A stretch of DNA of 64,000 nt, from NCBI GenBank assembly GCA_030747075.1, contig JASLLL010000004.1:70891-134890 (forward strand). The letters run 5' to 3'. This document shows positions 4,179-54,089 of the stretch, piece after piece; within the stretch, counting starts at the first letter, position 1; every line of letters starts with the position of its first letter. Made by a program: the position numbers and the translations under genes. The notes beneath the pieces are model-generated. The model had not been told where the DNA came from. It worked only from the letters and a program-made list of their open reading frames with translations, and did not search any database. This DNA is from Gemmatimonadota bacterium. Lineage in GTDB: Bacteria > ARS69.

Positions 4179-6599
4179 ATGACGAACTTCACTTCCCGGG
4201 CCACCGGCCCGTTGTGTGCCCTTGTGCTGTTGTGCGCCGCAATCCTGCCCGCCGCAGCCGCGAACTTTGACTCCATGGTGCTTCTCTCCCGCCTCGACGA
4301 CTACTCCGCCTACAACGATGTGTGGGGGTTTGTGGGGAATGACGGGCGTGAGTACATGATCCAGGGACTGACGACCGGCACGGCCTGGTGGGACATTGAG
4401 GACCCGGTTCATCCGGTATTCGTGAGGATGATCGGCGGTCCCAGCAGCACCTGGCGTGACATGTTCGTCATTGGAGACCACTGCTACATCAGTACCGAGG
4501 GCGGGGGCGGCATCCAGATTGTGGACATCTCCGACCCGACGAATCCGACGCTCGTGAACACCTACACGGACACGGTCGGCAGCCTCCACAACATCTTCGG
4601 CGATCCCGCGCGGAATCTCATCTTCGGAATCGGCGGGTATTCGAACGGCGCAAATGGCGGGATTCAGATCTTTGACGTGACCGACCCCGTCAACATCGTG
4701 GAGATCAGCCAGTGGAACAACCGCTACCTCCACGACATTTCGCTGGAGGGAAACATCGTCCATGCCTGCCTGATCTACGAAGGCAAGCTTCGCCTCATCG
4801 ACATCTCGGACTCCACGAACCCTGTGAACCTGGGGTCGGCATTCAACGATCCGACCGGGGCGGTCCACGCATCATGGCCGGTGGGCGATGGCGTGCATGT
4901 TCTGATCGCGGAGGAGACTACCGGCGGGCATGTGAAGGCTCTGGATGTCAGCAACCCGTCGGCGATCACGCAGGTCGGCGTTCACAACCCGGCGCCGAGT
5001 GCCTCCATCCATAACATCCATGTGGAAGGGGATCTTGCGTATGCGGCCTGGTATGCACGCGGCGTGCGTGTGCTGGATGTGTCGGATCCGTCCAACCTGA
5101 CCGAAGTCGGATACTGGGACACTTTTCCGGAGACGGATGCCGGCGGCGTGGGTCCAGGAAACTGGGGCGTGTATCCGCACTTGCCCAGCGGCGTGATTGC
5201 GGCGAACGATCGCACCTACGGGATGTTCCTGTTGAGGTATGACCCGACCGCGGGAGTGATGGACGGCACCGTGTCATCCTCCGACGGCGGACCGGCCCCG
5301 GGCGCGACCGTGGAGTTCGCGGAACTGAACTTCACCGACACGACGGACGCCACAGGCACCTACACGATCTCGTCCTTTGCCGGCGCAGGGAAGCAACTTG
5401 TGTTCGGCGGCTTCGGATTCTCGCCGGACACGATGGTGGTCACGGTTCCGCCGGGCGGAACCGTCACGACGGATGTGACGCTTGTGAAACTCCCGTGGGG
5501 GGGCGTCTCCGGGCGCGTCACGAATGCCGGAACCGGTCTGGGCATCGAGGCTGCGGAGGTGTCCCTTCTTGGGACGCCGCTGCTCACGGAAACAGACGCG
5601 GCGGGAGACTACTCCTTCCCGGATGTTCCGGAGGGAGCGTACGCGGTCGAAGCTCGGCGCTACGGATTCGTTCCGTCGACCGGGCTCTCCACGACGATTG
5701 TCGCCGGGAGCGTCGCCTCTCTGGACGCGACTCTTGAGCCTGCGCCGGTCTTCGAGGACTTCTCCGTGGCATCGGGATGGACCGTGCAGAATGACGCGGC
5801 GACGACCACCGGATTCTGGGTCTTTGAGGAACCGTTCGGCACCTACCAGAGCGGTGTCCCCTTCCAGACGGAGACGGACCATACGCTGGATCCGGAGAAC
5901 AAGTGTGCCGTCACCGGGAACGAGGCCACTGGTTCGCTCGGCGCGGACGATGTAGACGGCGGCGCGACGAAGCTTCTCTCGCCGGCCTATGACCTGTCCG
6001 CCATGACGGAACCGCATGTGTTCTACTACCGGTGGTATGCGGTGAATGCGGAAGAGGACGAATGGACGGTGGAACTCACCCTCGACGGCGGGGCGAGTTG
6101 GGCCCTTCTTGAGAGCACGCCGCTGATGGAAGCGTACTGGAAGCCGGTCGATATTGACCTGACGGCGTTTGTCTCCGGCCCGGGCGCGGGCAGCGTGCAG
6201 TTTCGCTTCACGGCGCTGGATCCGGATCCCGGACAGCTTGTGGAAGCAGCCCTGGATGACTTCACGATCTACGATGCCTCTTCCAGCACCGGCATCCCGG
6301 ATCTTCCCCCGGCCCCGGCGATGGTCCCGGGGCTTGCGCAGAATGCGCCGAACCCATTTGCCGATGAGACGACGGTTCGGTTCTCGGTTGCTCGGGAAGG
6401 CCCGGTGGAACTCTCCGTCTTCGATGTTCGTGGTGCACGCGTTGCGGTTCTGGCCGACGGAGACTTCGCCGCCGGTTCGCACGAAGCGTCCTGGGATGGC
6501 CGCAGCACGGGGGGTCGTCGCGCGGCCTCCGGTGTCTACTACTACCGACTCACGACTCCGGGGTTTGTGACCACGAAGTCACTGGTTCTCTTGAAGTAA
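4179..6599 (+). CDS. Secreted choice-of-anchor B family protein (LVIVD propeller, 2 carboxypeptidase-regulatory-like domains, jelly-roll domain, FlgD-like CTD)
   Basis: Signal peptide, YNDVWG, LVIVD repeats, NAPNPF...SWDGR...SGVYYYRL C-terminus. Confidence 0.88.
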   Translation: MTNFTSRATGPLCALVLLCAAILPAAAANFDSMVLLSRLDDYSAYNDVWGFVGNDGREYMIQGLTTGTAWWDIEDPVHPVFVRMIGGPSSTWRDMFVIGDHCYISTEGGGGIQIVDISDPTNPTLVNTYTDTVGSLHNIFGDPARNLIFGIGGYSNGANGGIQIFDVTDPVNIVEISQWNNRYLHDISLEGNIVHACLIYEGKLRLIDISDSTNPVNLGSAFNDPTGAVHASWPVGDGVHVLIAEETTGGHVKALDVSNPSAITQVGVHNPAPSASIHNIHVEGDLAYAAWYARGVRVLDVSDPSNLTEVGYWDTFPETDAGGVGPGNWGVYPHLPSGVIAANDRTYGMFLLRYDPTAGVMDGTVSSSDGGPAPGATVEFAELNFTDTTDATGTYTISSFAGAGKQLVFGGFGFSPDTMVVTVPPGGTVTTDVTLVKLPWGGVSGRVTNAGTGLGIEAAEVSLLGTPLLTETDAAGDYSFPDVPEGAYAVEARRYGFVPSTGLSTTIVAGSVASLDATLEPAPVFEDFSVASGWTVQNDAATTTGFWVFEEPFGTYQSGVPFQTETDHTLDPENKCAVTGNEATGSLGADDVDGGATKLLSPAYDLSAMTEPHVFYYRWYAVNAEEDEWTVELTLDGGASWALLESTPLMEAYWKPVDIDLTAFVSGPGAGSVQFRFTALDPDPGQLVEAALDDFTIYDASSSTGIPDLPPAPAMVPGLAQNAPNPFADETTVRFSVAREGPVELSVFDVRGARVAVLADGDFAAGSHEASWDGRSTGGRRAASGVYYYRLTTPGFVTTKSLVLLK

Positions 6600-35766: not shown

Positions 35767-37089
35767 GTGAGGATGACGGGGGTGCAGTGGGTGCCGGTTC
35801 TTGCGGGGGGCGCCGTGGCCGTGTTCGGTGCCGTGGCGCTTCTTCAGTGGCGGCGGGCTGATTCGTGGCGGGATCGTGCCGCGCGCCTCGAAGCGGAACT
35901 GCAGGCGTCGCGTGACTCCAACGACACCACCGAATCCATTCTGGAGACGGTGGAGACCCGGTTCCGCGATGCCTTCCGGTCCCTTTCGGCCGATGCCCTC
36001 TCCGAGAACAGCGACACCTTCCTCCGGCTGGCGCGGACCTCCTTCGACGGGTTTCGAGAAGCGACCGCCACCGACCTCGAGCGTCGCCGTGCCGCCGTGG
36101 ATGATCTTGTGCGTCCGCTTACGGAAGGCCTCGGCCGGATCGACCGGCATCTTACCGAAGCCGAGAAGGAACGAGGCAGCGCCCATGCCGCGCTCACCGG
36201 GCAGATCGACGGGCTGTTTCGCACGCAACAGGCCCTTCAGACGGAAACGGTGGGGCTTCGCCGGGCGTTGAGCGCGCCGTCCATTCGCGGGCGGTGGGGC
36301 GAAGTGCAACTTCGTCGCGTGGTCGAAATGTCGGGGATGGCCGAACACTGCGACTTCACCACACAGGATTCGTCCTCCGACGAGGAAGGGCGCGTGTTGC
36401 GGCCGGACCTGGTGGTGCACCTGCCCGGAGGGCACAGCATCGTCGTGGATTCCAAGGCGCCGCTGGCGGCCTACCTGAAGGCGATGGATGCGTCGGGAGA
36501 AGCGGAACGCGAAGTCCACCTGCGCGCTCATGCGCAGAGCGTGCGGGATCATCTGAAGGCGCTGGGGGGAAAGGCGTACTGGGAGCGTGTTCAGCCCGGC
36601 CCGGAGTTTGTCGTGATGTTCCTGCCGGGCGAAGCGATTCTCGGCGCCGCACTCGGCAAGGATCCGGATCTGCTGGAGTACGGCGTGGATCACAAGGTGA
36701 TCCCGGCCAGCCCCGCGACCCTGATTGCGCTCTTGCGTTCGGTCGCTTTCGGGTGGCGGCAGGAACGCGCCGCGGAGAGCGCGCGCGCGATTGCGGAACT
36801 GGGTCGCGAACTTCACGGGCGCATCGGTACGCTGGCCGCGCACTTCACCGACATGGGTCGCGCGCTGGGGAAGACCGTGGACACCTACAACCGCGCGGTC
36901 GGGTCGTTCGAAGCGCGCGTGTTGCCGGGCGCGAGACGGTTTCATGAACTGGGCGCGGTGGATTGTGCCGAAGTCGACTCTCCTCCTCCGCTCGACAGAG
37001 TCCCGCGCTCGCTTCGAGATCCGGCAGACCCGGCTGGTCCGGAGCGGATCTCCGAAGGCGAACCGGAGAACACGGAGATGAAGCCGTGA
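35767..37089 (+). CDS. rmuC: DNA recombination protein RmuC
   Basis: N-terminal TM and coiled coil; RGRWGEVQL, RPDLVVHLPG, VVDSKAPL, PEFVVMFLPGE, ASPATLIALL. Confidence 0.93.
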   Translation: MRMTGVQWVPVLAGGAVAVFGAVALLQWRRADSWRDRAARLEAELQASRDSNDTTESILETVETRFRDAFRSLSADALSENSDTFLRLARTSFDGFREATATDLERRRAAVDDLVRPLTEGLGRIDRHLTEAEKERGSAHAALTGQIDGLFRTQQALQTETVGLRRALSAPSIRGRWGEVQLRRVVEMSGMAEHCDFTTQDSSSDEEGRVLRPDLVVHLPGGHSIVVDSKAPLAAYLKAMDASGEAEREVHLRAHAQSVRDHLKALGGKAYWERVQPGPEFVVMFLPGEAILGAALGKDPDLLEYGVDHKVIPASPATLIALLRSVAFGWRQERAAESARAIAELGRELHGRIGTLAAHFTDMGRALGKTVDTYNRAVGSFEARVLPGARRFHELGAVDCAEVDSPPPLDRVPRSLRDPADPAGPERISEGEPENTEMKP

Positions 37090-39344
37090 CGCGCATCGGT
37101 GAGAGTCCGCGTCGCCCGGACGCTCTCGGGAAGGCGATCGGGACCGCGCTTTACGCGGCCGATGTCCCCATCCCCGGGGTCTTTCACGGGATGACCATCC
37201 GAAGTCCGCACGCGCACGCGAAGATTCTCGCCATTCACTGGCGACCCGAGGCGGCGCCCCCGGATTCCGTCTTTGTCTCCGCCGAGGACATTCGAGGCCG
37301 GAACGGCATCCAGATCCTTGACGACAGCTGGCCCGTACTCGCCCGCGAAGAAGTGCGGCATGTCGGTGAACCGGTGGCCCTGGTCGCGGCGATGACTCGT
37401 TCGGCCGCACTGGAGGCGGCGCGCGCCGTCGAAGTCGAGTACGAACCGTTGACGGCTGTGGCGGACATGGAAGACGCGGAGGATGTGCCGTTGCTGCACG
37501 AAATCCGGCTTGGAACGGACGGCGTCGAGGCCGCGCTCTCCCGCGCAGACCGCATCATCACCGGCGAGTATCGCACCGGCCTTCAGGAACACGCGTACAT
37601 CGAGAATCAGGCGGTGACCGCGTGGTTTGAGACGGACGGGACGCTGCAGATCACCGGGTCGATGCAGTGCCCGTTCTATGTTCACTCCGCGCTGGTTCAC
37701 AGCCTCGGCCTTCCGGAGGAGATGGTTCGCGTTCGTCCCACGGTGGTCGGGGGGGGCTTTGGCGGGAAGGAGGAGTACCCCAGCATGCTCGCGCTGCACG
37801 CGGCGCTTCTGGCGACGGCGTGCGGGGAACCGGTGCGGATTGCCTACGATCGCCACGAGGACATCGTCGGCACGACAAAGCGCCACCCTTCGCGCGTGCT
37901 GCATCGAACCGGTGTGGATGCGGAAGGGCACATCGTCGCGACGGACATTCGCGTCGATCTTGACGGCGGGGCTTACCGGACCCTTTCGCCGGTCGTGCTC
38001 TCGCGGGCGGTACTTCACGCGGCAGGCGCGTACCGCGCGGGAGTCGCGCGGATTCACGGGCGCGTGCTTCGGACGAATATGCCGCCGAGCGGAGCTTTTC
38101 GCGGCTTCGGGGCACCGCAGGTGCTCTTCGCGATGGAACGGCAGATGGATCGCATCGCGAGGGAGACGGGGATGAACCCGGTGGACATTCGCCGAAAGAA
38201 TGCGCTTCGACCGGGCGATGCCCTCCCCACCGGGCAGGTTCTTGACGACACCACTGCGGCCGTGGAGTGCCTGGAAGAGGCGGTGCGGCGAACGGACTTC
38301 GAGCGGAAGCATGCGATAGCGGAGGCCGCGCGACATGGCGAAGCGGAGGCGCCGTCGAAAGGAATCGGGGTCTCGCTCTTTCTGCACGGGGCAGGGTTCA
38401 CCGGCGAGGGAGAGCGGCGGATGCGCTCGCCCGTGACCGTCCGGCTGGACGGACAGGGGCGGATCGAACTTCTGGTCGCCAACACCGAAATGGGGCAGGG
38501 GTGCGCCACGGTGCTGCCGCAGATTGCCGCGGACTCGGCGGGGGTGGCGATGGAGGACATCGTGCTGGCGGAGGTGGATACGGCCACCGTGCCGGACTCC
38601 GGCCCGACCGTGGCGTCGCGCACAACCATGGTCGTCGGGGGAGTCGTGGCCCGCGCGGCGGGGCGCCTTGCGCGGGAGGTGCTTGCGTGGTGGAAAGAGC
38701 GCACCGGGGGAGAGGCCCCCGCGCTGCATGACGGATTGATCACCGACGGCGCGCGCGATCCCGTTCCTTTCCGGGAAGCGGCACGGCTCCGCCGGGAAGA
38801 GGTCGGCCCGCTGGAGATCACCATGAGGTATGAGCCTCCCGACTGGCAGGACTTTGACGAGACCTCCTACCGGGGGGCCGCGTATCCCACTTATGCGTGG
38901 GGCGCGAATGTCGTCGAAGTGGAAGTGGATCCTGACACGCTGGAGGTTCGCGTGGACAAGGCCACGGCTGTCTGCGAGATCGGGCGTGCGATCCACCCGG
39001 AACTCTGCCGCGGGCAGATTGAAGGCGGGACGCTTCAGGCGATCGGCTTTGGGCTCCTGGAGGAACTGAAGACGGAAGACGGGCGTATCTTGAACGATCG
39101 ACTCCAGACTTACATGGTGCCGACCTCGGTCGACGCACCGGATCTGGCCATCCACCTGCTGGAGAAGCCGTGGGAGGGTGGCCCGTCCGGCGCAAAGGGC
39201 ATCGGGGAGCTTCCCATGGACGGGGGCGCCCCGGCCGCTCTGCAGGCGGTGGAGAACGCGACGGGGCTCATTGCGGATGAGGCGCCCGCGACACCGGAAG
39301 TGCTCCTGGAACTCCAGGCGAATCGGAGAGCGGACGCGCCATGA
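37086..39344 (+). CDS. Xanthine dehydrogenase family molybdopterin-binding subunit
   Basis: GTALYAAD, HAYIE, GGGFGGKE, AFRGFG, TEMGQG, SRTT, KGIGE. Confidence 0.92.
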   Translation: MTRIGESPRRPDALGKAIGTALYAADVPIPGVFHGMTIRSPHAHAKILAIHWRPEAAPPDSVFVSAEDIRGRNGIQILDDSWPVLAREEVRHVGEPVALVAAMTRSAALEAARAVEVEYEPLTAVADMEDAEDVPLLHEIRLGTDGVEAALSRADRIITGEYRTGLQEHAYIENQAVTAWFETDGTLQITGSMQCPFYVHSALVHSLGLPEEMVRVRPTVVGGGFGGKEEYPSMLALHAALLATACGEPVRIAYDRHEDIVGTTKRHPSRVLHRTGVDAEGHIVATDIRVDLDGGAYRTLSPVVLSRAVLHAAGAYRAGVARIHGRVLRTNMPPSGAFRGFGAPQVLFAMERQMDRIARETGMNPVDIRRKNALRPGDALPTGQVLDDTTAAVECLEEAVRRTDFERKHAIAEAARHGEAEAPSKGIGVSLFLHGAGFTGEGERRMRSPVTVRLDGQGRIELLVANTEMGQGCATVLPQIAADSAGVAMEDIVLAEVDTATVPDSGPTVASRTTMVVGGVVARAAGRLAREVLAWWKERTGGEAPALHDGLITDGARDPVPFREAARLRREEVGPLEITMRYEPPDWQDFDETSYRGAAYPTYAWGANVVEVEVDPDTLEVRVDKATAVCEIGRAIHPELCRGQIEGGTLQAIGFGLLEELKTEDGRILNDRLQTYMVPTSVDAPDLAIHLLEKPWEGGPSGAKGIGELPMDGGAPAALQAVENATGLIADEAPATPEVLLELQANRRADAP

Positions 39345-39835
39345 CCTCTCCGGGATTCTCCGTCGGGAAGGGAGGTGCGGTCCGGGTGGAGTTCCGCCTG
39401 AACGACCGGGACATCTCCGTTGACGCGTCCCCCGTTGATCGGCTTCTCGATATTCTCCGGGATCGCCTCCATCTCACGGGCACCAAGGAAGGGTGCGGCG
39501 AAGGAGAGTGCGGCGCCTGCACGGTGCTGCTGGACGGGGTTCCGGTGCTGGCGTGTCTCGTCCCGATATTCCAGTGCGCCGGGCGCGAGGTGACCACGGT
39601 GGAGGGAATCGCGGAGTCGGGTTCGCCTTTGCCGGAACTGCTGGCGGACTCGGGTGGCGTCCAGTGCGGGGCTTGCACGCCGGGGGTGCTGGTGCGACTG
39701 CACGCGCTGCTGGCGGAAGATCCGACGCCCACGCGCGAACGCGTTCGCGAGGCGCTTGCGGGGAACCTCTGTCGCTGCACCGGCTACGAGGGAATCCTGC
39801 GCGGAGTCTGCGCGAAGGAAGGAGAGGCCCGTTGA
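39341..39835 (+). CDS. Xanthine dehydrogenase family (2Fe-2S) subunit
   Basis: GTKEGCGEGECGAC, QCGACTPG, NLCRCTGY. Confidence 0.93.
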   Translation: MTSPGFSVGKGGAVRVEFRLNDRDISVDASPVDRLLDILRDRLHLTGTKEGCGEGECGACTVLLDGVPVLACLVPIFQCAGREVTTVEGIAESGSPLPELLADSGGVQCGACTPGVLVRLHALLAEDPTPTRERVREALAGNLCRCTGYEGILRGVCAKEGEAR

Positions 39836-40686
39836 TCACCGTCCACTCGCCGCGCACGCTGGAGGAAGCGGTGGAGCATCTTGCGCGGACGCCGGGCCTG
39901 GTGCCGGTCGCCGGGTGTACGGATCTCATGGCCGCCGGAGGCTTCCCGAGCGCAGGCGGCCTGCTGGATGTGACGCGCATTGCGGAGATCGGCCGGGTGG
40001 AACGCGAAGACGCATGGGTGAAGATCGGCGCGGCCGCTTCCTTCGCGCGGATCGAGGCGTCTGAGATCGTGCGGGCCGCGTTCCCCGTGCTGGCGATGGC
40101 GGCCGCCACCGTGGGCGGGACGCAGGTGCGGAACCGGGCGACCCTCGGCGGGAATCTCGCGAACGCCAGCCCGGCCGGTGATTCGCTTCCGGCGCTCCTG
40201 GCACTGGGCGCGGAGATTGTGGCGGTGGGGCCGGACGGTTTGCGGTCGATCCCGCATGACGCATTTCACACGGGCTACCGAAAGACGGCACTCGCTCCGG
40301 GTGAGATCATCGCGTGGGTGAGGATACCGTTGGAAGGACACGGGGCGGCCCCGTCTCCGGAGATCCAGCGGTTCCGAAAGGTGGGCACCCGCCGCGCACA
40401 GGCGATCAGCAAGGTCACCCTGGCGCTTGCGGCATCGCGGGAAGGGAAGAACGGCCCGCTCTCCCGAGTCCGGTTGGCCGCCGGAAGCGTCGCGGATCGA
40501 CCGGTGCGTCTGCGGAAGGCGGAGGAAGTGCTGGAAGGCGCATTGCCCGGGGAGAAAGTGGCGGGCGCGGTGGAGGCGGCCGCCCGGGCCGAGGTGTGCC
40601 CCATCGACGATGTCCGTTCGACCGCCACCTACCGGCTCCATGTGCTGGGGAGAGTCGCGCGCCGGATGGTGCTGTCTATCGAATAG
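39832..40686 (+). CDS. Xanthine dehydrogenase family FAD-binding subunit
   Basis: VAGCTDL, QVRNRATLGGNLANASPAGD, PIDDVRST. Confidence 0.9.
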   Translation: MITVHSPRTLEEAVEHLARTPGLVPVAGCTDLMAAGGFPSAGGLLDVTRIAEIGRVEREDAWVKIGAAASFARIEASEIVRAAFPVLAMAAATVGGTQVRNRATLGGNLANASPAGDSLPALLALGAEIVAVGPDGLRSIPHDAFHTGYRKTALAPGEIIAWVRIPLEGHGAAPSPEIQRFRKVGTRRAQAISKVTLALAASREGKNGPLSRVRLAAGSVADRPVRLRKAEEVLEGALPGEKVAGAVEAAARAEVCPIDDVRSTATYRLHVLGRVARRMVLSIE

Positions 40687-41542: not shown

Positions 41543-41687
41543 CCGGTTACCGTCCTTTCTCTTCGTCGAATCAGGCCACGCACGAGGTAATCCGTCAAGG
41601 ATTGCCCACCCGTGAGGATAAGGTGCCACGGTGTGGTATCTTCCGGGGAAACGACACTCCGCCAAGAGCGTGAACCGGGAGGCTGGT

Positions 41688-43352
41688 GTGGGATCTTCAG
41701 CGGGCAGGTTCGCGGGGAGTTACCCGGCCGGAGTCCCGGCGGAAGTGGACACCGGTGAGTTCGCCTCCGTGGGCGATCTCTTCCTGGACGCGGTGGCGCG
41801 GTTTCCGGATCGACCCGCCTTCACCAATCTGGGGCGGACGCTGTCGTTCACGGAGACGGAGCGTGCGAGTCGTGACTTTGCGGCGTATCTCACGCGTGAT
41901 CTCGGTCTCACCCGGGGCGACCGCCTTGCGATCATGTTGCCGAATCTTCTGCAATACCCGGTCGTGCTCTTTGGTGCGATGCGTGCTGGCGTTGTCGTGG
42001 TCAATATCAACCCGCTCTACACGGCGCGTGAACTTCACCATCAACTGACGGACTCAGGGGCTTCGGCGATGGTGATTCTGGAGACCTGTGCGCGCGTGCT
42101 CCAGAACGCGATCCACGGGACCGGCGTGCGATCGGTGGTGGTCACGGGTGTGGGGGATGCGCTGGGCTTCCCGCGATCGGCCCTTGTGAACGCGGTGGTC
42201 CGGTATGCGAAGCGTGCCGTTCCCCGTTGGTCGCTTCCGGGGGCTGTGCGCTGGCGAACGGCGATGCGAAGCGGTGCGGCGCTTCCGTTTGACGCGCCCG
42301 CGGTGGGGCAGGACGAGATCGCGTTTCTCCAGTACACCGGCGGCACGACGGGAGCCAGCAGAGGCGCGGTTCTGACTCATGGAAACATGGTGGCGAATGT
42401 GCTGCAGGCGGGCGCGTGGATCGGGCAGGAGGTGCGTCCGGGGAGAGAGGTCATGGTGACCGCGCTGCCGCTGTACCATATCTTTGCGCTCACAGCGAAC
42501 GCGCTCACCTTCCTGCATGCCGGAGCGGAAAACCTGCTGATTACGAACCCGCGCGACCAGAAGTCCTTCGTGCGGGAGTTGTCGCGCTCGCGCTTCACCT
42601 ACATCACGGGCGTGGACACGCTCTTCCGCGCCCTCCTGGACGCGCCCGGGTTCGACCGGTTGGACTTCTCCAGCCTTCGTCTGGGACTGGGCGCGGGGAT
42701 GGCGCTTCGTCCGGAGGTGGCGGCGCGCTGGCAGGAGGTGACCGGCGTTCCCGCGGTCGAGGGGTACGGGCTGACAGAGGCGTCCCCGGCGGTTTGCCTC
42801 AGTTCCTTTTCCGCGACCGGGTACACCGGGAATGTCGGCCCGCCGCTTCCCTCCACCGAATGCGAGGTTCGCGCGCCGGACGGCGAGGAAGTTCCCTTTG
42901 GAGAAATCGGGGAACTGTGCGTGCGTGGCCCGCAGGTCATGCGGGAATACTGGAACCGCCCGAAGGAGACCGCGGCAGTCCTGGGCGAAGACGGCTGGCT
43001 TCGCACGGGGGACCTCGCGACGATGGACGCGGCCGGGTTTGTGAAGATCGTCGGGCGCGCGAAGGAGATGGCGATCGTCAGCGGGTTCAATGTGTACCCG
43101 GACGAGGTGGAGGAGGTCGTCGGCGAGCACCCGGGCGTGGCGGAGGCGGGGGCAGTGGGTGTGCCGGATGAGAAGTCCGGCGAGACAATGAAGGTCGTCA
43201 TTGTGCGGCGGGATCCCGCCCTCACGGCGGAAGAGGTGAGGGCGTTCTGCCGGGAGCGGCTGGCGGCGTACAAGGTGCCGCGCGTTGTGGAGTTTCGCGA
43301 GGCGCTTCCGAAGAGCGCCGTCGGGAAGATCCTTCGCCGGGAACTGCGATAG
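41688..43352 (+). CDS. fadD: Long-chain fatty acid-CoA ligase
   Basis: LQYTGGTTG, EGYGLTEASP, TGDL, SGFNVYP, PKSAVGKILRR; GGAGG RBS; extended -10 TGgTATCTT at 41634-41642. Confidence 0.9.
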   Translation: MGSSAGRFAGSYPAGVPAEVDTGEFASVGDLFLDAVARFPDRPAFTNLGRTLSFTETERASRDFAAYLTRDLGLTRGDRLAIMLPNLLQYPVVLFGAMRAGVVVVNINPLYTARELHHQLTDSGASAMVILETCARVLQNAIHGTGVRSVVVTGVGDALGFPRSALVNAVVRYAKRAVPRWSLPGAVRWRTAMRSGAALPFDAPAVGQDEIAFLQYTGGTTGASRGAVLTHGNMVANVLQAGAWIGQEVRPGREVMVTALPLYHIFALTANALTFLHAGAENLLITNPRDQKSFVRELSRSRFTYITGVDTLFRALLDAPGFDRLDFSSLRLGLGAGMALRPEVAARWQEVTGVPAVEGYGLTEASPAVCLSSFSATGYTGNVGPPLPSTECEVRAPDGEEVPFGEIGELCVRGPQVMREYWNRPKETAAVLGEDGWLRTGDLATMDAAGFVKIVGRAKEMAIVSGFNVYPDEVEEVVGEHPGVAEAGAVGVPDEKSGETMKVVIVRRDPALTAEEVRAFCRERLAAYKVPRVVEFREALPKSAVGKILRRELR

Positions 43353-43363
43353 CGCCCTGTTCG

Positions 43364-44353
43364 TCAGTCCGGGGAGGAGGCGGCCGCCGCGCAGCGCCGA
43401 ACGATGTCTCCCGCGGGCAGGATGGACGATACGCCCCCCGCGCTCTTCCCGGCCTGAAGGTAGGCGCGCGAGTCGGCGCGGCCTTGCGCGGCGCGCTTCT
43501 GGCTCCATACTGAACGCAGCGTGTAGATGGTTCGCATGAGGTGTTTCGTTCGGGGATGCCGAAGGAGACGGCGGGCGACCGGTCCCGCATGAAGCCCGGT
43601 GCGTTCCACATGAGGCGTTCGGATCACCGAGACGGGAACACCGGTGAGGCGCTCCGTCAGCACGATGTCGTCCGCGGTGGCAGCGATGATGGCGGCCTTG
43701 TAGTCCGCCGGGGCGGTGCATTCCTCCGTGACGATGAAACGCGTCCCCATCTGCACGCCCGCGTAGCCCGCCCGGATGGCGTCGGCGAAGTCGTGCTCCG
43801 TGCCGATCCCACCCGCGCAGACAAGCGGAACACCGAGTCCGGCCAGCTCTGCGAACAGATCACCGGCGGTGCGCCCGCCCGCGTGTCCCCCGGCGCGGTT
43901 GTTCACGCAGATCAGGCCGTCGACTCCCGCGGCAAGGCTCTTCTCAGCCCAGCGCAGTTCGGTGACATCGTGGTAGACGATGCCGCCTGCCTCCCTGGCG
44001 CGCTCCACGACCCACCGGGGGTTCCCGAGGGAAGTGACGAAGAAACGCACGCCCTCTTCCAGCGCGATATCGATCCAGCTTTCCATGCGCTGCCGGTACT
44101 TCCTCGAGGACGATTCGATGAGCGCGTTCATGCCGATCGGGCGGGAGGTGAGCGACCGGATATGGCGGAGGCCTTCGCGGAAGTCATGCCCGTGGACATA
44201 GGTGAGCGACACCGGCTGCACCACGCCGATCCCGCCCGCTTCCGAGACCGCGGCCACCAGTTCCGGATTGCTGCACGGGTACATCGGGCCGCAGATGAGC
44301 GGCGTGTCGATGCCGAGGTGGCGGGTGAGCGGCGTGTCGATGAGCGCGGTCAT
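43364..44353 (-). CDS. Nitronate monooxygenase / FabK-like FMN oxidoreductase
   Basis: [26 protein letters not shown]. Confidence 0.88.
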
Positions 44354-46380
44354 GCGGGGCCGAGCCTCCACCGCGCGGTCGTTACCGCGACGACCTGGCC
44401 GCCCGAGTCGAGGATTTCGGCGGTGGCGTCGAAGTCCGCGCCTTCCGGCGGGACGCGCGGCGGTGTGCAGCGGGCCACGGCGGTCAGCGGCCCGCGCGCC
44501 TTCTTGCGGTACTCGGTGGAGAGATGCGTGACGATGCCGCGGACATCGGCGGGAAGAGAAGCCAGCGTGGCGAGCCCGCTCGTGACTTCGCCGAGATTGG
44601 TGAGAGCCACGGCGTGGACGGATCGCAGATGGTTGCGAACGCGCCGGGAGTCTCGCAGGCGCACAGTGGCACGGCCGGGGGCCAGTTCGACAACGCGCGG
44701 TCGGATCGTGTGCGTGTAGGGTACGCGCTTGCCGAGAAGGCGGCTGAAGAGCCACGCGCCACCGGGGTAGGGGCGCAAGCGGTTCCAGAGCGAGAGAAGT
44801 TCGTTGTCGGCGGTCTGAGCCGCGACCGTGGCCGCGGGAACAGGCGTGGCGCCTTCGTCTCCTTCGCTTTCGGCGGAAGTCGGCGCGGCCCAGTCCCGAC
44901 AGCGGGTGACGGCCTTCGCCCAGCGGGCATGGCGTCGATTCCTCTCCTCCTCCGGGACGGCGGGTTCGTGGCGGCGCGCCATGCGCCACTTCTCGGCGAG
45001 TTCGTCGCGATTGCTCCAGAAGCCGACCGCCAGTCCTGCCAGGTACCCGGCGCCGAGTGCCGTCGTCTGCGTGATCTCGGGGACCTCCACGGGCACGCCG
45101 AGGAGATCGCTCTGGCACTGCATGAGGAATCGATTGCCGACCGCGCCCCCGTCCACGCGAAGCTCGGTCAGGTCCACGCCGGAGGCGCGCCGCATGGCGT
45201 CCATGGCGTCGCGCGTCTGGTGGCATATGCTCTCCAGCGTTGCCCGCGCGATGTGCGCGCGCGTTGTGCCGCGCGTGATCCCGACGATCGTCCCGCGTGC
45301 GTAGGCGTCCCAGTGCGGGACGCCGAGCCCCGTGAGCGCCGGGACGAAGAAGACATCGCCGGTGTCATCCACGGAGGCGGCAAGCGCCTCGCTTTCGGCC
45401 GCGGTCTCGATGATGCCGAGGCCGTCGCGCAGCCACTGGACGGCGGCGCCCGTGATGAAGATGGCGCCTTCGAGCGCGTATTCCACCGGCTCCTCACCGA
45501 TCTTCCACGCGATCGTCGAGAGAAGTCCCTCCCGCGCGGGCGCGGGGTGATGTCCCGTGTGGAGCAGCAGGAAGGAGCCGGTGCCGTAGGTGTTCTTCGC
45601 CATGCCGGGCCGGTGGCACGCTTGCCCGAAGAGCGCGGCCTGCTGGTCCCCCGCGATTCCGGACACGGGGATGCGTCTCCCGAGGAATGCGCCGGGGTCG
45701 GTCTCTCCATAGACGGCGGACGACGGTTCGACTTCGGGGAGAATGGCACGCGGAATATCGAGCCGCTCCAGAATGTCGGAATCCCAGTCGAGCGTGCGGA
45801 TATTGTAGAGGAGCGTGCGCGAGGCGTTGGAGGGGTCGGTGACATGGCGAGCGCCACCGGTGAGCTTCCAGACGAGCCAGGTGTCGATCGTGCCGAAAGC
45901 GATCTCGCCGTTCGCACAGCGGGCGGGAAGGCCGTCGTGATGGTCGAGCATCCAGCGGATCTTCGTCGCGGAGAAGTACGGGTCGATGAGGAGGCCGGTC
46001 TTCTCGCGCCAGATCGGCTCCAGCCCTTCCCGCTTCAGTTTGTCGCAGAGCGGCGCGGTTCGTCGGTCCTGCCAGACAATGGCGCGGGAGATGGGGATGC
46101 CGGTTGCGCGATCCCACAGGAGCGAGGTCTCGCGCTGGTTGGTGATGCCGATGGCGCGAATGTCGTCCGGGGATGCTCCCGCATCGGCGAGCGCCGCCTC
46201 CACCACGGCCAGCGTGACACGCCACAACTCCTCCGCGTCGTGTTCCACGCGTCCGGGCAGGGGATAGTGCTGCGTGAACTCGGAGGAGGCGCGGCCGCGG
46301 ATGGAACCCGCATGATCGATCACGAGCACGGTGGATGCCGTGGTGCCCTGATCGATGGCGATCACGAATCCGTCGCTCAT
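44350..46380 (-). CDS. glpK: Glycerol kinase fused to a C-terminal hotdog-fold (DUF4442/PaaI-like) domain
   Basis: [45 protein letters not shown]; open frame continues through a linker into [16 protein letters not shown]...[10 protein letters not shown]. Confidence 0.9.
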
Positions 46381-46513
46381 GGGGGTCCTTTCGCAACGGC
46401 GGATGCACCGCGCACCCGCGAGAGAGATATTGCCGGAAGGAAGTGGAGAGCGGTAGCTTCGATTTGTCCGGAAGGATCTTCCGCTTGCTCGGGCGCTGCC
46501 CGGGGAAAGGAGA

Positions 46514-47203
46514 GTGCCGCTCGTGCTGCCGTTTCTCTCCGGCCTGGCCGCGGGTTCGCTGCATGTAGTCTCCGGGCCGGACCATCTGGGCGCGCTGGCA
46601 CCGATGGCTGCGGGCCGTCCGGCGCGGGCGGTGGGAGTGGGCCTCTTCTGGGGATTCGGCCATGGAACGGGCGTGGTTCTCTTGGGGCTGGCCGGAGTGC
46701 TGGGTCGTTCCTTGATTGATGTGGATGCCGTGAGCGGTTGGTCGGAGCGCATCGTGGGCGTGGTGCTGGTGGCGGTGGGTCTTTGGGCGATTCGTCGATC
46801 ACGAACGCTCGTTGTGCACGCGCACGGGCACAAGCACCTGCATGGCGAAGGCGACGCGGGCGGCGGCCATGAGCACATTCATGTTCACCTGGGCGACACA
46901 GATCACGCGCGCGGCCGGAAGCACAGTCACCGTCGCCGCGCGGCTTGGGGAATCGGCGTGCTGCACGGAGCTGCGGGAACCGGCCATCTGGTCGGTGTCG
47001 TGCCTTCGCTGGCGTTGCCGGCGGGACAGGCGTTAGTCTTCCTTTCGGCGTATCTTGTTGCCGCGACCGTGTCGATGGGGGTGTTCGCCGGATTGCTCGG
47101 GAGCCTTACGGCACGACTCGGCCCGCGCGCTCTTCGGCCGATCACGCTTGTGAGCGGTCTCTTTGCCCTGGCGGTCGGGGTTGTGTGGATGGTGAGAGGA
47201 TGA
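46514..47203 (+). CDS. Nickel/cobalt transporter (NicO/UreH-like)
   Basis: [17 protein letters not shown], His-rich loop, GVLHGAAG. Confidence 0.85.
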
Positions 47204-53040: not shown

Positions 53041-53712
53041 TTATTCCTCCACGGGAGTAGGTGGCACGGACCCCTGAACGTACCGGAAGACCCATGTTGC
53101 CGCCGCGGCTCCGGCAATGGGTGCTGCGATGTACAGCCACAGCGCGTCCCACTGGCCGGAGACGATTGCCGGGCCGAGTGAACGCGCCGGGTTCATGGAC
53201 GCACCGGTCAGCGGCCCGCCGAGAAGCGCTTCCCAGGTGACCGTTCCGCCGATGGCGACTCCGGCCATGATCCCCTTTTCCATGTGCCCGGTGGACACAT
53301 TGAGGATGACGAAGACCAGGAAGAAGGAGAGAGCCGTCTCCACCACCAGAGCCTGGGGTACCGTCACCGACGGCAGTGTCGCGCCCAGCGTCTCATGCTC
53401 GGGAAACAGCACGCGCAAGAGAAGGGCGGCCGCGATCGCTCCTGCCAGCTGGCTTCCGATGTACGGGAGAACCGCCTTCCCTTCCAGGCGTCGGGCGAAC
53501 AGGAAGCCGAGCGTGACCGCCGGGTTGATGTGCGCTCCGGAGATGTTGCCGATTGAGTAGATCATGGCCATGACGACCAATCCGAACACCACGCATACGC
53601 CCAGGTGCCCCAGCGTTCCCGGGAACAAGTCGTTGACGATGGCGGCTCCGCAACCCGCAAACACCAGCGCGAATGTGCCGACGCCCTCCGCGATGAACCG
53701 GTTTCCGTTCAT
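53041..53712 (-). CDS. MIP/aquaporin family channel
   Basis: ISGAHINPAVT and ASMNPARSLGP (two NPA motifs); AGGAG RBS. Confidence 0.93.
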   Translation of the reverse strand: MNGNRFIAEGVGTFALVFAGCGAAIVNDLFPGTLGHLGVCVVFGLVVMAMIYSIGNISGAHINPAVTLGFLFARRLEGKAVLPYIGSQLAGAIAAALLLRVLFPEHETLGATLPSVTVPQALVVETALSFFLVFVILNVSTGHMEKGIMAGVAIGGTVTWEALLGGPLTGASMNPARSLGPAIVSGQWDALWLYIAAPIAGAAAATWVFRYVQGSVPPTPVEE

Positions 53713-54089
53713 GAGTCTCCTCGCGCCCGGTGAGAGGGCGATCCGGCGGCTTCCGTAGTCTTCGCGGCCTGCTGAAACGAGCGCGCTCCTGCGGTCGCGT
53801 CCAGCCCGTACTTCTCCCATGCGGCAATCAGCGACGGGCCGCCCCCTTCCGCCCATGCGGAGTCGTAGACGCGGAGCCCTTCGGTGAGCCACGCCTCGTC
53901 GCACTCTTCCCACCGGTTCAGCAACGCGGGGATGTTGTGGACGGCCTCCATGAGGTCCGCCAACCGCGCGCTCTCCCCTGCGGACAGGCCCTTCTCCTGC
54001 CCACGGTGTGCGGTCGCGCGGGCTTCGAGGATGGCGCGGGACAGAACTTCGAGACAGGCGGAGCGTTGAGGCTCCGGTGCGACAGACAT
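53709..54089 (-). CDS. Hypothetical protein
   Basis: ADLMEAVHNIP motif; ATGA overlap with the MIP gene. Confidence 0.6.
   Translation of the reverse strand: MSVAPEPQRSACLEVLSRAILEARATAHRGQEKGLSAGESARLADLMEAVHNIPALLNRWEECDEAWLTEGLRVYDSAWAEGGGPSLIAAWEKYGLDATAGARSFQQAAKTTEAAGSPSHRARGDS

Follow-up and report, generated by a model that had tools for sequence, protein, structure and literature searches.

Glycerol kinase (GlpK) is known from the solved structures of the Escherichia coli (1bo5, 1gla) and Thermus thermophilus (2dpn) enzymes, and hotdog-fold proteins of the DUF4442 family are known as stand-alone polypeptides of 150–170 amino acids, two of which, 1yoc (Pseudomonas aeruginosa PA1835) and 1sh8 (PA5026), are structural-genomics proteins without an assigned function. 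Here we describe a gene in which the two are joined in one open reading frame. It lies in a 64,000-nucleotide stretch of contig JASLLL010000004.1 (positions 70,891 to 134,890; hereafter the window) of the assembly GCA_030747075.1, a Gemmatimonadota bacterium of the GTDB lineage ARS69, and is followed by a gene for a flavoenzyme of the nitronate monooxygenase (NMO) family, whose closest described relative is FabK (2z6i, 4iql, 5gvh), the enoyl-acyl carrier protein reductase II that depends on flavin mononucleotide (FMN). With a probability of roughly 70%, we consider the gene to be a young, lineage-restricted fusion that is tolerated, in which both enzymes are intact and work independently and the hotdog part still serves its flavoenzyme partner.

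A glycerol kinase continued by a DUF4442 domain

The N-terminal part of the fused protein matches a full-length GlpK from end to end. Both Pfam domains of the family are found (FGGY_N, PF00370, residues 6–252, E 1.2e-72; FGGY_C, PF02782, residues 262–451, E 2.8e-42), and the NCBIfam GlpK equivalog TIGR01311 is matched over residues 5–497 with a score of 680.3 bits against a cut-off of 590.35. Residues 5–497 of the 501 residues of E. coli GlpK (1bo5) align to residues 5–498 of the fusion, with the segment AIDQGTTAS and a second segment of 13 residues being either identical or conservatively replaced. This protein thus carries DQGTT near its N-terminus as well as GDQQAA, which we take to be phosphate- and glycerol-site motifs of GlpK. 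Because the sequence is collinear with that of the E. coli enzyme and because the 30 closest GlpKs stop 2–16 residues past the GWA motif, the kinase is complete at about residue 500. The 176-residue C-terminal extension that follows has no counterpart in the 120 closest GlpKs or in the solved GlpKs.

The fusion is the sole GlpK of its genome, as a tblastn search over the whole assembly returned a single GlpK match. A GlpD-type gene (identified by a DAO_C match on contig C5) and an MIP channel gene that lies about 7 kb from glpK indicate that the organism probably has a working glycerol route. If this pathway is used, the kinase activity must therefore be supplied by the fusion.

The C-terminal part contains a DUF4442 domain (PF14539) that spans residues 541–672 and covers positions 1–131 of the 132 in the model (E 2.4e-34, 118.8 bits against a cut-off of 25). 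All residues that are invariant in the subfamily, the invariant columns having been taken from two alignments of 25 and 36 sequences, are kept (W532, P554/Y555, N583 and H584 of the RNH motif, S587, H589, A590, N595, E598, A628-R629-G630, and others). An AlphaFold2 model of residues 516–676, with a mean predicted local distance difference test score (pLDDT) of 88.4 and a predicted template modeling score of 0.83, displays a helix at 75–93 followed by strands, as in the hotdog fold. Its best Foldseek matches are the DUF4442 proteins 1yoc (template modeling scores 0.83/0.91, root-mean-square deviation 2.1) and 1sh8, and a profile search of the PDB also recovers 1yoc (E 5.5e-27). Besides family and fold, the RNHLxSxHAxALxNxxE and KKARG motifs are common to these two proteins and to the fused domain. 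Unlike the stand-alone DUF4442 proteins, however, the domain sits behind a kinase; its subfamily is one that has an NMO-family gene as its partner.

The next structural neighbors of the model are PaaI, the Arthrobacter 4-hydroxybenzoyl-CoA thioesterase (4HBT), THEM2 and AziG, with Foldseek E values of about 1e-8 to 1e-9 for the PaaI/4HBT/THEM2 thioesterases. A profile alignment to the thioesterase-family protein 3e1e places Glu598 on the Asp of the HAGxxxxxLD motif, at an identity to this class of just 11–26%. An Asp or Glu at this position is presumably the catalytic carboxylate of the PaaI/THEM2/4HBT class. In contrast to these thioesterases, the DUF4442 domain has HAx instead of an HGG motif.

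Between the kinase and the hotdog domain runs a linker of about 26 residues (501–526) that is rich in Ala, Pro and Thr and contains five acidic and zero basic residues. The linker is predicted to be disordered, and residues 516–524 have pLDDT values below 50 in the AlphaFold2 model. Stand-alone hotdog homologues mostly start 15 codons ahead of the conserved Trp that corresponds to W532 of the fusion, and codons 495–534 contain no in-frame ATG, GTG or TTG. We therefore rejected the idea that a separate hotdog protein is started internally: the first candidate start, TTG535, falls past the conserved Trp. These properties agree with the preliminary description of this DNA, made from the sequence alone, which had read a complete GlpK continuing without a stop through an approximately 27-residue acidic and Ala-rich linker into a full DUF4442 domain, with no Shine-Dalgarno-preceded internal start ahead of the second domain; the overlap of the gene with an NMO/FabK-like gene, and the fadD gene that it faces, were likewise seen correctly.

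An AAGGAG hexamer occupies codons 506–508 of the linker, and the ACG codons at positions 512 and 518 were considered as former ATGs. We rejected the hexamer as a relic Shine-Dalgarno sequence: its chance occurrence in about 80 nucleotides is roughly 3%, and the usual start of the homologues, 15 codons before Trp532, is too distant from it. Genome-wide, moreover, AAGGAG is not enriched 3–12 nucleotides upstream of ATG (10.6% against a background of 9.9%), and classical Shine-Dalgarno pairing may count for little in the selection of start codons in this organism.

Distribution of the fusion and continuity of the join

A word search with residues 490–676 against 5.8 billion protein clusters, covering proteins of 372–1183 amino acids, returned a truncated copy of the same protein as its sole match. 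With residues 501–676 as the query, phmmer retrieved 1207 sequences from 1.84 billion representatives; the top 150 are all 116–298 amino acids long, with a highest identity of 59%. The representatives stand for 50% clusters with hidden members, which is why the window's own protein is absent from this result. When the whole protein was used as the query, the best 120 matches were GlpKs of about 500–575 amino acids that are 66–77% identical to it and contain FGGY_N and FGGY_C only. At the DNA level, 241 million metagenome records were scanned with queries that included the junction peptides CRDWAAPT and ELAEKWRM; the 49 relatives obtained are all hotdog-only, and in a set of 60 relatives plus outgroups every DUF4442 match was located in an open frame of 137–333 amino acids.

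The nearest GlpKs (72–77% identity) and the nearest hotdog homologues (about 60–66%) are all stand-alone proteins, and the three nearest GlpK contigs carry unrelated genes downstream. Long open frames do extend upstream of some stand-alone hotdog homologues; 9 of the 10 that were tested hold no other Pfam domain, and we rejected these nine as further fusions and regard them as chance frames in GC-rich DNA. The preliminary description had called the fusion unusual, and indeed no second GlpK-DUF4442 protein was encountered in the protein, representative or metagenome searches. Judged by these searches, the fusion appears to be confined to one species-level population.

Within this population the join is found repeatedly. 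Logan contigs from at least nine sequencing runs on seawater or marine samples, which belong to six studies and date from 2015 to 2023, contain the 501 bases around the linker. Logan contigs, which are consensus sequences and not reads, from four runs of four studies were compared with window positions 44200–46500. They cover the junction continuously (positions 44200–46155 in two runs, 44200–45186 and 44529–45219 in the other two) and differ from the window by four substitutions and zero indels. A second metagenome-assembled genome (MAG), GCA_030743925.1, carries the same gene, with two bases different, up to the end of a 4184-base contig. Furthermore, short contigs that are 97–98% alike cross the linker without gaps in brine metagenomes of 2025, and the base composition is even across the join. 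A stop codon after ...RDWA, at which the preliminary description had envisaged that a lost-stop mutation or a sequencing error might come to light, is seen in none of these contigs, nor in the second MAG or the brine variant, all of which pass through the linker without an indel.

Seven of the nine substitutions that distinguish members of the population are synonymous, two of these being located in the linker codons P513 and P515, and the non-synonymous ones are R466S and G660D. In the hotdog part, three of four substitutions are synonymous. This mostly synonymous pattern is suggestive of purifying selection.

The conserved hotdog and flavoenzyme pair

To place the hotdog domain in its genomic context, GTDB was scanned with the domain alignment at one genome per species. 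The scan yielded 589 relatives, and all genome-locus counts below refer to the best 80 of these 589, which come mostly from Gemmatimonadota, with some from Planctomycetota, MAGs labeled 'Gammaproteobacteria', and myxobacteria. In 70 of the 80 genome loci, the gene directly downstream of the stand-alone hotdog gene, in the same orientation, is an NMO orthologue (52–75% identity). Of the metagenome loci, 42 have enough downstream sequence, and an NMO orthologue directly follows the hotdog gene in 30 of them. Taking all 129 related loci together (80 genome and 49 metagenome loci), a hotdog gene followed by an NMO gene is found in 100, and a GlpK or FadD homologue is found near the hotdog gene (within 3–6 kb; 6 kb for the genome loci) in none. 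The conserved unit is therefore the hotdog domain plus the NMO-family enzyme. At the fusion locus, the TGA stop of the fused gene overlaps the ATG of the NMO gene (as ATGA), and this coupling is best explained as a remnant of the hotdog-NMO unit.

The NMO protein is a member of the same NMO/TIM-barrel family as FabK, and among the structures in the PDB it matches the FabKs best (E about 1e-29). As its score against the FabK equivalog TIGR03151 is 134.3 bits and does not reach the cut-off of 453.1, the protein is FabK-like but not a FabK orthologue.

A fusion of a different kind is found in the myxobacteria. Cystobacter fuscus strain NCWS contains a single 511-residue frame (positions 4942–6474 of the locus, forward strand) in which the adh_short domain of a short-chain dehydrogenase (SDR; residues 69–254) is followed by a DUF4442 domain of the same subfamily (residues 378–505), with no NMO gene downstream, and in Archangium the SDR and hotdog parts are adjacent but belong to separate frames or contigs (C867, C133). 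The myxobacterial proteins thus parallel the window in that a same-subfamily hotdog domain (54% identity) is fused with, or positioned beside, another enzyme, but the partner here is an SDR oxidoreductase and not a kinase. The recurrence of an oxidoreductase as the partner points to acyl- or enoyl-thioester redox chemistry and supports a redox/thioester role of the hotdog domain in preference to a link with glycerol.

Consequently, the 'lipid-salvage cluster' of the preliminary description is not supported: glpK and fadD accompany the hotdog gene in 0 of 129 loci, and its conserved partner is the flavoenzyme. The same counts, together with the restriction of the fusion to a single population, leave the proposal that the fusion couples or tunes glycerol and fatty-acid salvage without comparative backing. 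A literature search found no report on a DUF4442-NMO gene pair and nothing relevant on a glycerol kinase-hotdog fusion or on the pairing of a nitronate monooxygenase with a hotdog thioesterase. The occurrence of the DUF4442-NMO pair in about 100 loci of Gemmatimonadota, Planctomycetota and others is a first clue, from gene context, to what DUF4442 proteins do, and as such it is a more useful by-product of this analysis than the fusion itself.

Origin and possible roles of the fusion

We propose the following model for the emergence of the fused gene. The conserved stand-alone hotdog-NMO module would, most plausibly, act on an acyl or enoyl thioester, with the hotdog protein binding or hydrolyzing the thioester and the flavoenzyme reducing or oxidizing the acyl chain. 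The sole glpK of the organism would then have come to sit directly upstream of this module and would have lost its stop codon, as a result of which the kinase would read through the disordered acidic linker of about 26 residues into the hotdog domain, while the translational coupling to the flavoenzyme gene (ATGA) would have been retained. Because the family-defining features are kept in both halves and the change within the population is mostly synonymous, the product is most likely a working glycerol kinase that carries a working hotdog domain, and the two would act independently of each other. The fusion looks tolerated, and not selected for coupling.

The relatives of the host and of the two genes bear on how this could have come about. 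The eleven other genomes of the family contain neither an NMO orthologue nor a hotdog domain of this subfamily, and their GlpKs, which are 53–57% identical to the kinase part, end at the usual place. The window GlpK resembles GlpKs on metagenome contigs (77%) and in other phyla (about 70%) more closely than it does the GlpKs of its own family (about 55%), and in a phylogenetic tree the window NMO stands on a long branch inside a clade that is almost wholly of Gemmatimonadota. This distribution and these identities fit, but do not prove, a history in which transfer supplied one part or both. Composition was rejected as a transfer signal because it is uninformative: the GC contents of glpK, the hotdog part and the NMO gene (0.68–0.70) fall within the spread of the genome (mean 0.656, standard deviation 0.024).

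The host itself probably belongs to the FCB group and is of the Eisenbacteria type, to judge by its EF-Tu (C20:36816–38003, forward strand, cut by the contig end), for which the best named relative is a Candidatus Eiseniibacteriota MAG (87%), followed by Calditrichota (82%). The runs that contain the organism are seawater, marine and brine metagenomes. Its genome is 2.67 Mb at 100% completeness, and those of the eleven family members are 3.4–5.1 Mb. The small genome and the distribution of these genes possibly reflect genome streamlining, horizontal acquisition of the genes, or both, and the fusion may be the product of a deletion or rearrangement during the reduction of a genome that is about half as large as those of its family relatives.

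Several points weigh against this account. The word search (which relies on shared 5-mers) and the use of representatives at 50% identity could miss very distant or independently arisen fusions, a real test of selection would need more than nine polymorphisms, and the transcript search found no RNA run that contains the fusion sequence. That the two domains act independently is assumed by default and is not a result. The literature search on DUF4442 gave two incidental mentions only and no biochemistry for any member. Finally, a pre-fusion glpK beside a DUF4442-NMO pair is absent from the family relatives and from the three nearest GlpK contigs, and because this arrangement was found in no relative, we can only infer the mode of origin.

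The strongest alternative is a 'Rosetta-stone' fusion, in which the tethered hotdog domain binds or hydrolyzes acyl-CoA or acyl-acyl carrier protein and thereby tunes the kinase allosterically, or sites the production of glycerol-3-phosphate beside acyl-thioester turnover, so as to link glycerol and fatty-acid salvage for the synthesis or breakdown of glycerolipids. Several observations are in line with it: (i) the fusion has two intact domains and a frame that persists through samples dated 2015 to 2025, (ii) the fusion is the only GlpK of the genome and so cannot be dead, (iii) fadD is adjacent, and (iv) hotdog domains of this fold class, to which the neighbors PaaI, 4HBT and THEM2 belong, bind CoA thioesters. 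However, the architecture recurs in no collection searched, the hotdog gene has neither glpK nor fadD as a neighbor at any of the other loci, the nearest GlpKs have unrelated neighbors, the conserved partner of the hotdog domain is the NMO enzyme, and fadD is on the opposite strand and hence on a separate transcript. To our knowledge, acyl-CoA regulation has been described for no GlpK, and a response of the kinase to acyl thioesters via a tethered domain would, if true, be a new mode of GlpK control. We regard this alternative as unlikely.

A broader version would treat the locus as a three-activity unit in which a kinase, an acyl-thioester hydrolase or binder and a FabK-like flavoenzyme, all encoded on one message, link glycerol phosphorylation to acyl-thioester turnover. 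An example of such a linkage would be the acyl-CoA-responsive control of the entry of glycerol into glycerolipid metabolism in a streamlined marine bacterium. If true, it would constitute both the first acyl-thioester-regulated GlpK and the first function for DUF4442, but we find it quite doubtful.

It is very unlikely that the hotdog domain is an inert tail, which accidental read-through attached to a kinase that alone matters and which is now decaying toward loss. Such a fate would suit a young fusion found in one population only, and the relatives in the family live without the hotdog-NMO module. Decay is, however, at odds with the retention of all invariant and nearly invariant residues of the subfamily, the confident structural model, the predominance of synonymous substitutions (three of four) in the hotdog part, and the downstream NMO gene, which is intact and still start-stop coupled. 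Lastly, although the assembly is a draft MAG in 61 contigs, an artefact (a stop codon lost or a frame shifted by an error of sequencing or assembly, or two organisms joined as a chimera in the MAG) is effectively excluded by the unbroken, indel-free contigs from four independent runs and studies with only synonymous differences, by the agreement of the second MAG and the 97–98% brine variant, and by the uniform composition over the join.

Under the preferred reading of a tolerated fusion of independent enzymes, the locus is a well-documented case of a young fusion that is real in many samples and intact in both halves, and for which 'guilt by association' would nevertheless mislead. By itself, a glycerol kinase architecture that is seen in a single uncultured marine population, with no second case in the very large collections searched, is a curiosity. 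The features of the locus are collected in Table 1.

Table 1 Positions of the fused gene, its parts and neighboring genes in the window
Feature	Positions	Strand	Basis and remarks
Fused open reading frame (GlpK + linker + DUF4442)	44350..46380	−	676 aa + stop; uninterrupted translation, Pfam and NCBIfam matches
Glycerol kinase part, residues 1–500	44881..46380	−	TIGR01311 score, E. coli GlpK alignment
Linker, residues 501–526	44803..44880	−	limits from the usual GlpK end and the usual start of stand-alone hotdog homologues
DUF4442 hotdog domain, residues 527–676	44353..44802	−	PF14539, invariant residues, AlphaFold2 model, 1yoc profile match
FabK-like FMN oxidoreductase (NMO family), 329 aa	43364..44353	−	PF03060, E 5.6e-39
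FadD-type long-chain fatty-acid-CoA ligase	41631..43352	+	AMP-binding domains
MIP-family (GlpF/aquaporin-like) channel	53041..53913	−	PF00230, E 1.1e-50 at 53086–53703

The fadD gene is convergent with the NMO gene, with 11 nucleotides between their ends, and the best NCBIfam FadD-type models score 741–745 bits on the ligase, which is under their equivalog cut-offs. On the other side of the locus, and divergent from glpK, is a gene for a His-rich membrane protein of 229 amino acids (46514–47203, forward strand) that has no Pfam match and resembles the nickel/cobalt efflux transporter model NF007454 only weakly (E 4e-5, 23 bits; cut-off 195). Just upstream of fadD, at 36963–40686 on the forward strand, are subunit genes of a molybdenum hydroxylase of the xanthine/CO dehydrogenase family, which encode a large subunit with MoCoBD_1/2 domains and a FAD-binding subunit.

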